Of a stretch of 64,000 bases of DNA, positions 41,383-41,793 are shown piece after piece. Each line of letters opens with the position of its first letter. The first letter of the stretch is position 1. The stretch is from a phage, in the NCBI GenBank assembly GCA_019385495.1, contig GCA_019385495.1_4102.1; one strand, written 5' to 3'. Both the position numbers and the translations under genes were made by a program. The notes beneath the pieces were generated by a model. The model saw nothing but the letters and a program-made list of their open reading frames with translations, made no database searches and was not told where the DNA came from.

Positions 41383-41793
41383 ATGATTGATATGGAAGGA
41401 ACTCTGGTGTATGATCCAGATCGTGGCACTATGAAAAAGAAGAAGGACTTCTGGTTAGTACTACAACTTCCATTACAGTTGGTTAGATACTACCAGTACT
41501 TCATCAGAACTGACTTACATATTGATATTAAAGACCCACAATGGGGAGCACATGTCAGTATCGTTCGTGGTGAAGTGCCACCAAATCCAGAGTACTGGAA
41601 AAAATACGATGGAATGAAAGTAAAGATAAAGTTCAATCCTTGTATTGAGATAGTAAAAGATAAAAAGAATCCAGGTTCATTCTTTATCATTGAATTTGAA
41701 GATGATTTCATCACACATATTAGAAATGAACTAGGACTACCAACCAAGTACTTTAAATATCACATCACTGTAGGTAGAACCTACTACGATTAA
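41383..41793 (+). CDS. 2H phosphoesterase (LigT-like)
   Basis: Two H-x-[ST]-x motifs about 80 residues apart: GAHVSIV and KYHITVG. Confidence 0.6.
   Translation: MIDMEGTLVYDPDRGTMKKKKDFWLVLQLPLQLVRYYQYFIRTDLHIDIKDPQWGAHVSIVRGEVPPNPEYWKKYDGMKVKIKFNPCIEIVKDKKNPGSFFIIEFEDDFITHIRNELGLPTKYFKYHITVGRTYYD

Follow-up and report, generated by a model that had tools for sequence, protein, structure and literature searches.

A predicted 2H phosphoesterase of jumbo phages and its candidate role in RNA-end healing during tRNA repair

The subject of this study is a small gene in a stretch of phage DNA of 64,000 nucleotides (NCBI GenBank assembly GCA_019385495.1, contig GCA_019385495.1_4102.1), which as a whole is referred to below as the window. 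The gene occupies positions 41383..41793 on the plus strand, starts with ATG and encodes a protein of 136 amino acids. The surrounding segment 40600-42900 is 98.5-99.7% identical to the corresponding region of jumbo coliphages such as G17, Sharanji, SP27, phAPEC6 and 121Q (all about 350 kb), which belong to Asteriusvirus, the 121Q/G17/PBECO4 group. The gene is gp531 of phage 121Q, where it is labelled 'hypothetical protein' and where the encoded protein is 96% identical to that of the window. The homologue P0001 is 96% identical and of equal length, and the homologues of this length share the start Met. The phage records listed call the gene 'hypothetical', one record uses the label 'viral L protein', and PHROGs assigns the protein to phrog_12204, a group of unknown function. 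A first-pass annotation had proposed that this open reading frame (ORF) encodes a 2H phosphoesterase, on the grounds of paired HxT/S motifs (HVSIV and HITVG). The ORF was recovered at exactly the proposed coordinates and length, and the two motifs are indeed there, one in each half of the protein, as follows.

41551..41562, plus strand: first catalytic motif, H57-V-S-I (residues 57-60), read from the sequence; H57 is invariant and the motif lies in model strand 56-62
41761..41772, plus strand: second catalytic motif, H127-I-T-V (residues 127-130), read from the sequence; H127 is invariant and the motif lies in model strand 126-132

The codons of the two His residues are found at 41551-41553 (H57) and 41761-41763 (H127), within the translated segments AHVSIVRGE and YHITVGRTYYD. 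The protein has four His residues in total (46, 57, 112 and 127), and two of them open an H-x-[ST]-x motif. Two H-x-[ST] motifs in such a short protein could be there by chance and prove little alone; the argument for a 2H enzyme is carried by conservation and structure. When 97 diverse homologues are aligned, no column other than H57 and H127 is invariant, and T129 is conserved in at least 90% of the sequences. In a closer alignment of 22 sequences H57, R62, G63, H127, T129, G131, R132 and T133 are all invariant and S59 is conserved in at least 90%. The surrounding residues form two conserved blocks, W-G-A-H-[VI]-S-[IV]-[IV]-R-G-E around H57 and H-[IL]-T-[IV]-G-R-T-Y-Y around H127. The idea of a pseudo-enzyme was rejected because both His residues are invariant.

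The AlphaFold2 model of the protein (pLDDT 90.5, pTM 0.83) has the topology β-β-α-β(HxS) followed by β-β-β-α-β(HxT), and an internal repeat of this kind is what defines the 2H fold; in the model each motif sits on the last strand of its repeated unit. When this model is compared with solved structures, the single best match is Acb1 (7t27, score 7.2), followed by mouse hepatitis virus (MHV) ns2 (6.9), Usb1 (6.5), the Penguinpox cGAMP phosphodiesterase (6.2), the LigT protein PH0099 (6.2), the cyclic phosphodiesterase (CPDase) known as DR CPDase (5.9), CNPase (5.5), AKAP18 (5.3), the plant CPDase acting on ADP-ribose 1'',2''-cyclic phosphate (Appr>p) (5.0), ASCC1 (4.4) and rotavirus VP3 (4.2). 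Foldseek gives weaker yet consistent results (probability 0.93 for Usb1 and 0.6 for LigT, TM about 0.4-0.46), and the matches in BFVD are phage proteins labelled Acb1, 2H-SAK or LigT.

At the level of sequence, a Pfam hmmscan finds a single relevant family, PF22547, '2H-SAK (Swiss Army Knife, 2H phosphoesterase domain)', with an E value of 1.6e-5 and a score of 25.6 bits, which is below the gathering score of 27; residues 89-136 alone align. A match to the PAZ domain in the same kind of search (E 0.19) was dismissed as noise. The LigT/ThpR families PF02834 and PF13563 gave no Pfam match for the window protein. A search of 5.8 billion proteins returned 28 homologues (37-96% identity, 133-164 amino acids), 25 of which carry a precomputed PF22547 assignment; the UniRef name of one close homologue is 'Swiss Army Knife 2H phosphoesterase domain-containing protein'. 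When 1.84 billion cluster representatives were searched with a profile, the family grew to 1075 clusters at E <= 1e-3, and the best 150 of these 1075 are mostly stand-alone proteins of 130-170 amino acids. Among the 97 diverse relatives, 79 match 2H-SAK at E <= 0.01 and two match LigT_PEase weakly (best E 0.0012), and no other 2H family was matched. Searches of the PDB by sequence, with the single protein as well as with the profile, gave chance-level matches only (for example a circovirus capsid and PrgK), and no solved relative is detectable by sequence.

Taken together, the invariant His pair, the 2H-SAK match and the predicted fold bear out the first-pass call, and the structure prediction and comparison with LigT and CPDase that had been proposed as a check likewise point to a 2H fold. 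Sequence and model thus place the window protein among the 2H phosphoesterases, distant from every solved member. Judged by its sequence relatives, it is a minimal stand-alone member of a phage-specific, mostly jumbo-phage branch of Pfam 2H-SAK.

The distribution of the gene is narrow. Among isolated phages, tblastn finds it in 77 records, nearly all of them jumbo phages of 310-635 kb; the carriers include Asteriusvirus, phages of the RaK2, CBB, GAP32 and Serratia BF types, XbC2, Bacillus phage G, Atu_ph07 and RsoM2USA. A scan of 185,579 prokaryotic species, each represented by one genome, returned five contigs of metagenome-assembled genomes only. The branch is phage-restricted and largely confined to jumbo phages.

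The gene context of the family was studied in 74 viral contigs, which were collapsed into 42 groups (2H proteins at least 80% identical were merged); ORFs were called and clustered, and neighbours within ±8 kb of the 2H gene were recorded. The most frequent neighbour among those given here is an RNA ligase of family PF09414 (any subfamily), present in 14 of the 42 groups and in 11 of those 14 within 4 kb. Nudix genes are found in 11 groups and the CCA enzyme in 8; YqeY, NADAR and GroES are each found in 6, PTH2 and Macro-like genes each in 5, and HPF and EF-Ts each in 4. In 4 groups the gene directly downstream of 2H is His_Phos_1. The 2H-linked ligases fall into three non-overlapping subfamilies (about 420, 205 and 214 amino acids), which occupy differing positions relative to the 2H gene.

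Two distant relatives are Yersinia phage fHe-Yen9-04 and a 106-kb metagenomic contig, with 2H proteins that are 49-55% identical. In these two, the genes upstream are an RNA ligase (PF09414 and PHA02142), a 71-amino-acid gene, (a HAD hydrolase and PRTase_3) and DUF2828/DUF7788, after which the 2H gene follows; downstream of it come an unknown protein of about 190 amino acids, a lysozyme, HPF, the CCA enzyme, Nudix, glutaredoxin, YqeY, PTH2 and gp13. In such other RaK2-like jumbo phages (L005 2657..8000 and L002 2944..8000) the RNA ligase (about 420 amino acids) and DUF2828/DUF7788 (about 510-530 amino acids) are found immediately upstream of the 2H gene. We take DUF2828 to be related to TROVE/Ro60-vWA.

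A second conserved arrangement is present in large uncultured phages (L064-L074; for example L071 5389..12223), where EF-Ts, 2H, His_Phos_1, HNH, GroES, a 205-amino-acid RNA ligase and NAMPT occur in this order. This would be a heal-and-seal cassette set among translation and chaperone genes. In a further case the 2H domain is joined to another protein: P0035 (L006 952..1959) is one ORF of 335 amino acids in which 2H-SAK-like residues 4-154 are fused to YqeY at residues 219-334. This fusion was seen once only, on a contig of 3.3 kb from an NCBI assembly, and may be an artefact of assembly or gene calling. YqeY (Pfam PF09424) is presumably a tRNA-binding domain of the GatB-tail type.

In the window, the following features are of relevance to the 2H gene.

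26439..28709, plus strand: RlaP, RNA-ligase-associated Pol-beta nucleotidyltransferase (Pfam RlaP, E 1e-14, plus LAGLIDADG_3)
40668..41024: 118-amino-acid gene, a flank retained beside the apparently lost ligase/DUF2828 module
41157..41375, plus strand: conserved 72-amino-acid gene directly upstream of the 2H gene, no Pfam match
41929..42888: lysozyme, with a TTG start by ORF call; the start used in 121Q corresponds to 41962
42906..43238, plus strand: ribosome hibernation factor of the HPF/RaiA type (Pfam Ribosomal_S30AE, E 3e-10)
45470..46582, plus strand: tRNA nucleotidyltransferase of the CCA-adding type (Pfam PolyA_pol and PolyA_pol_RNAbd)
46690..47091, plus strand: Nudix hydrolase (Pfam NUDIX, E 1e-12)
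47921..48397, plus strand: macro-domain-like protein (Pfam Macro, E 0.0036, below the cut-off)
48738..49115, plus strand: PTH2-like peptidyl-tRNA hydrolase (the ORF itself has no Pfam match)

The downstream part of the window is syntenic with the relatives (lysozyme, HPF, CCA enzyme, Nudix, Grx, macro-like, PTH2-like, gp13). The macro-like gene has a homologue that scores Macro at E 2.5e-4, and the RefSeq label of the 121Q counterpart, gp544, is 'macro domain-containing protein'. The PTH2-like ORF shares 31% identity (E 4e-16) with a gene of L002 that matches PTH2, and the representative of its cluster matches PTH2 at E 5.6e-7. A CCA enzyme, Nudix genes and a macro domain had already been listed as neighbours in the first-pass annotation, and all of them are present: the CCA-type enzyme at 45470..46582, Nudix genes at 46690..47091 and 7304..7855, and the weakly matching macro gene at 47921..48397. 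The HPF/RaiA gene is kept between the lysozyme and the CCA enzyme in distant relatives as well (loci L002 and L005). The lysozyme, which has a LysM motif and a Phage_lysozyme domain as well as a predicted hydrophobic segment at its N terminus, directly follows the 2H gene across RaK2-like phages and is an odd neighbour for genes of RNA metabolism.

Upstream of the 2H gene the window differs from the relatives. The ligase and DUF2828 genes that adjoin the 2H gene there are missing, and what remains is the 118- and 72-amino-acid genes. The latter is conserved (tblastn of L005_5551_5766 against window 41190-41354 gives 40% identity, E 1e-8), and in Yersinia phage fHe-Yen9-04 the RNA ligase gene is immediately followed by its homologue. 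That the two flanking genes are kept without the ligase and DUF2828 suggests that the ligase module was deleted or replaced. Pfam searches with the immediate upstream neighbours and with the genes beside RlaP gave no matches, and no PF09414 ligase, NADAR or His_Phos_1 was found in the window or in 121Q. Phage 121Q, which is nearly identical, does encode a T4-type Rnl1 (gp438) and Pnkp (gp443) at 201.8-205 kb, both confirmed by Pfam; they lie about 50 kb upstream of the 2H gene, outside the span of the window. The same phage has 8 tRNA genes.

RlaP is presumed to be a distant member of the same repair toolkit as the 2H gene. It is 756 amino acids long in the window and 410 in 121Q (gp506), owing to an insertion of 346 amino acids at about 27402..28439. 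The insertion contains the LAGLIDADG_3 domain, starts with Cys (…GYD|CYSFD…) and ends at …LHGN|CKHAMH…, and its flanks are 99% and 91% identical to gp506; by these sequence features it resembles an intein that contains a homing endonuclease and sits in an RNA-repair enzyme. A separate cluster is formed by Sir2 (6549..7307), a Nudt16-like Nudix gene (7304..7855) and a PIN-PhoH fusion (8545..9984), and it resembles the sirtuin-centred neighbourhood that Iyer et al. predicted to be involved in NAD-dependent RNA repair.

The 2H stop codon is followed by about 170 non-coding nucleotides (41794..41961) that reach to the lysozyme start of 121Q (window 41962); they are AT-rich and contain a TG-extended TATACT element resembling a -10 box at about 41837-41845. 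An Rfam scan of 41794..41961 matched no family, and tRNA and Rfam scans over the whole window found nothing. Counts of promoters and terminators around the 2H gene are not above shuffled expectation, and therefore no operon structure can be claimed.

What does this enzyme do? The fold, the invariant His dyad and the gene contexts are direct results. By analogy with better-known 2H enzymes we favour, on balance, the reading that it is a metal-independent RNA 2',3'-cyclic phosphodiesterase that acts in tRNA repair. Like the His pairs of other 2H enzymes, H57 and H127 would serve as general acid and base, with no metal involved. The substrate would be RNA on which host ribonucleases that need no metal, anticodon nucleases for example, have left a 2',3'-cyclic phosphate. 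If LigT, Trl1-CPD and CNPase are a guide, opening of this phosphate would yield a 2'-phosphate. This monoester could then be removed by the HAD domain of Pnkp in the window phage and by the adjacent His_Phos_1 or HAD enzyme in other phages. The resulting 3'-OH end may be extended by RlaP or the CCA-adding enzyme, restoring lost nucleotides, and sealing would fall to an ATP-dependent RNA ligase, namely the T4-type Rnl1 in the window phage and the adjacent PF09414-type ligase elsewhere. The net effect would be that tRNA, and hence translation, is kept working during infection.

Several published results and predictions agree with this scheme. It has previously been shown that RlaP adds nucleoside monophosphates to RNA 3' ends, including mimics of cleaved tRNA halves, and that it requires a 3'-OH on these halves (PMC12776372). 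The idea itself has been published: Iyer et al. (2021, 2022) predicted the same role for the 2H enzymes of jumbo phages, proposing that they clear ends for ATP-grasp RNA ligases, with ROT/TROVE, RlaP, the CCA enzyme and "Swiss-army-knife" HAD phosphatases as partners (PMC7824862, PMC9503650). The annotation of 121Q carries TelA, ClpP, ClpS, IF3, KTSC and a split Pol III α, which are features of group 2.2 of Iyer et al., and we infer that 121Q belongs to this group. The suggestion in the first-pass annotation of an RNA-end repair or signal-degrading function is also supported.

A number of points weigh against a role in tRNA repair. No ligase was found within 8 kb in 28 of the 42 groups, and part of the ligase association is synteny inherited among related jumbo phages and not independent linkage. 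In the window phage itself no ligase or phosphatase adjoins the 2H gene; the ligase and DUF2828 genes that adjoin it in relatives are absent from the 64-kb window, and the adjacent-ligase type of the relatives was not seen in the Asteriusvirus records. Pnkp of the T4 type can itself heal 2',3'-cyclic ends, which would make a separate cyclic phosphodiesterase dispensable. The substrate and the product of the family members are purely inferred from analogy, and the single best structural match of the model is the nuclease Acb1, which acts against CBASS, an antiphage defence that signals through cyclic oligonucleotides.

An alternative that we regard as unlikely is that the 2H protein is not a repair enzyme and would instead be the first known representative of a second family of phage 2H nucleases directed against immune signals, one unrelated to Acb1 in sequence but analogous to it in function. 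The target that jumbo phages would destroy with it would be a host defence messenger, such as a cyclic oligonucleotide, a signal ending in a 2',3'-cyclic phosphate or a cyclic phosphate derived from ADP-ribose. Such a role would explain why Asteriusvirus keeps the 2H gene despite having lost the adjacent ligase and having no Acb1. By sequence the window protein is not a member of the Acb1 family: it has no Pfam match to PF23474 even at E <= 10, BLASTP against T4 gp57B (Acb1) is insignificant (E 0.11), and a profile-profile comparison of the 2H family with the Acb1 alignment (hhalign) gives a probability of 15.9% over 30 columns that cover a single helix-HxT unit. Neither tblastn nor hmmsearch --max detected an Acb1 paralogue in 121Q, and therefore redundancy is no argument against an Acb1-like role in a phage of this type. 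However, the gene context of the 2H family points to RNA repair.

A somewhat different and rather improbable proposal is that the enzyme opens Appr>p or a related signal derived from ADP-ribose. Appr>p would arise from the removal of 2'-phosphates by an enzyme of the KptA/Tpt1 or sirtuin type, and the macro and Nudix enzymes would then degrade the product. However, several genes, namely the lysozyme, HPF and unknown genes, stand between the 2H gene and the macro and Nudix genes, the Sir2 cluster lies 34 kb from it, and no KptA/Tpt1 was seen in the annotation of 121Q. Moreover, the association could be synteny inherited within one clade of jumbo phages. Such an activity is compatible with a role at RNA ends, and the two are not exclusive. 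Finally, Usb1-like 3'-to-5' trimming that leaves a cyclic phosphate, 2'-5' ligation (an activity of LigT that is regarded as the reverse reaction seen in vitro), scavenging of free 2',3'-cyclic nucleoside monophosphates or a non-catalytic RNA-binding remnant are all highly improbable here, as both His residues and the Arg and Gly beside them are strictly conserved, which argues for catalysis, and the context gives no pointer to U-tail trimming.

Our results move a gene labelled 'hypothetical' in phage records into a known, computationally predicted family and provide it with a supported function. The 2H branch emerges as a near-exclusive hallmark of jumbo phages in a gene island for the maintenance of tRNA and translation. 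If RNA healing is its true role, these phages would possess a fuller and partly redundant toolkit for tRNA repair, consisting of 2H, Pnkp, Rnl1, RlaP, the CCA enzyme and PTH2, which would bear on the resistance of giant phages to anticodon nucleases and other RNA-targeting defences. If, on the other hand, the enzyme acts on immune signals, it would represent a new anti-defence family.

Among the closest known systems is Pfam 2H-SAK, which we take to be the 2H domain of the 'Swiss Army Knife' RNA-repair proteins, reportedly described by Burroughs and Aravind in 2016. It is the sole Pfam family matched, and the two share the HxT/S motifs and, across the family though not locally in the window, the gene links to RNA ligases and phosphatases. 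The phage branch differs in that its members are stand-alone proteins of 130-170 amino acids, essentially confined to phages, and in that they carry the extra signature G-x3-Y-D-P-x-R, W-x-K-Y and I-R-x-E-L-G-L. Compared with LigT/ThpR enzymes (E. coli LigT, PH0099 and DR CPDase), the phage 2H protein is about 40 residues shorter, and LigT enzymes are cellular whereas the 2H branch is phage-restricted.

Acb1 (T4 gp57B, Erwinia phage FBB1; PF23474), which degrades cyclic oligonucleotide signals (PMC9117128), has conserved blocks unlike those of the 2H family, and phage fHe-Yen9-04 has both a 2H homologue (P0016) and a separate protein that is named Acb1 in UniProt. The T4 pair Pnkp and Rnl1 is similar in its presumed purpose, which is the healing and sealing of tRNA cut by host anticodon nucleases. 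To our knowledge the classical T4 pathway has no 2H enzyme, and the end healing is done there by Pnkp. For the window phage, the 2H enzyme would either add a first step to such a pathway or provide an alternative one, and its gene would lie about 50 kb from those of Pnkp and Rnl1.
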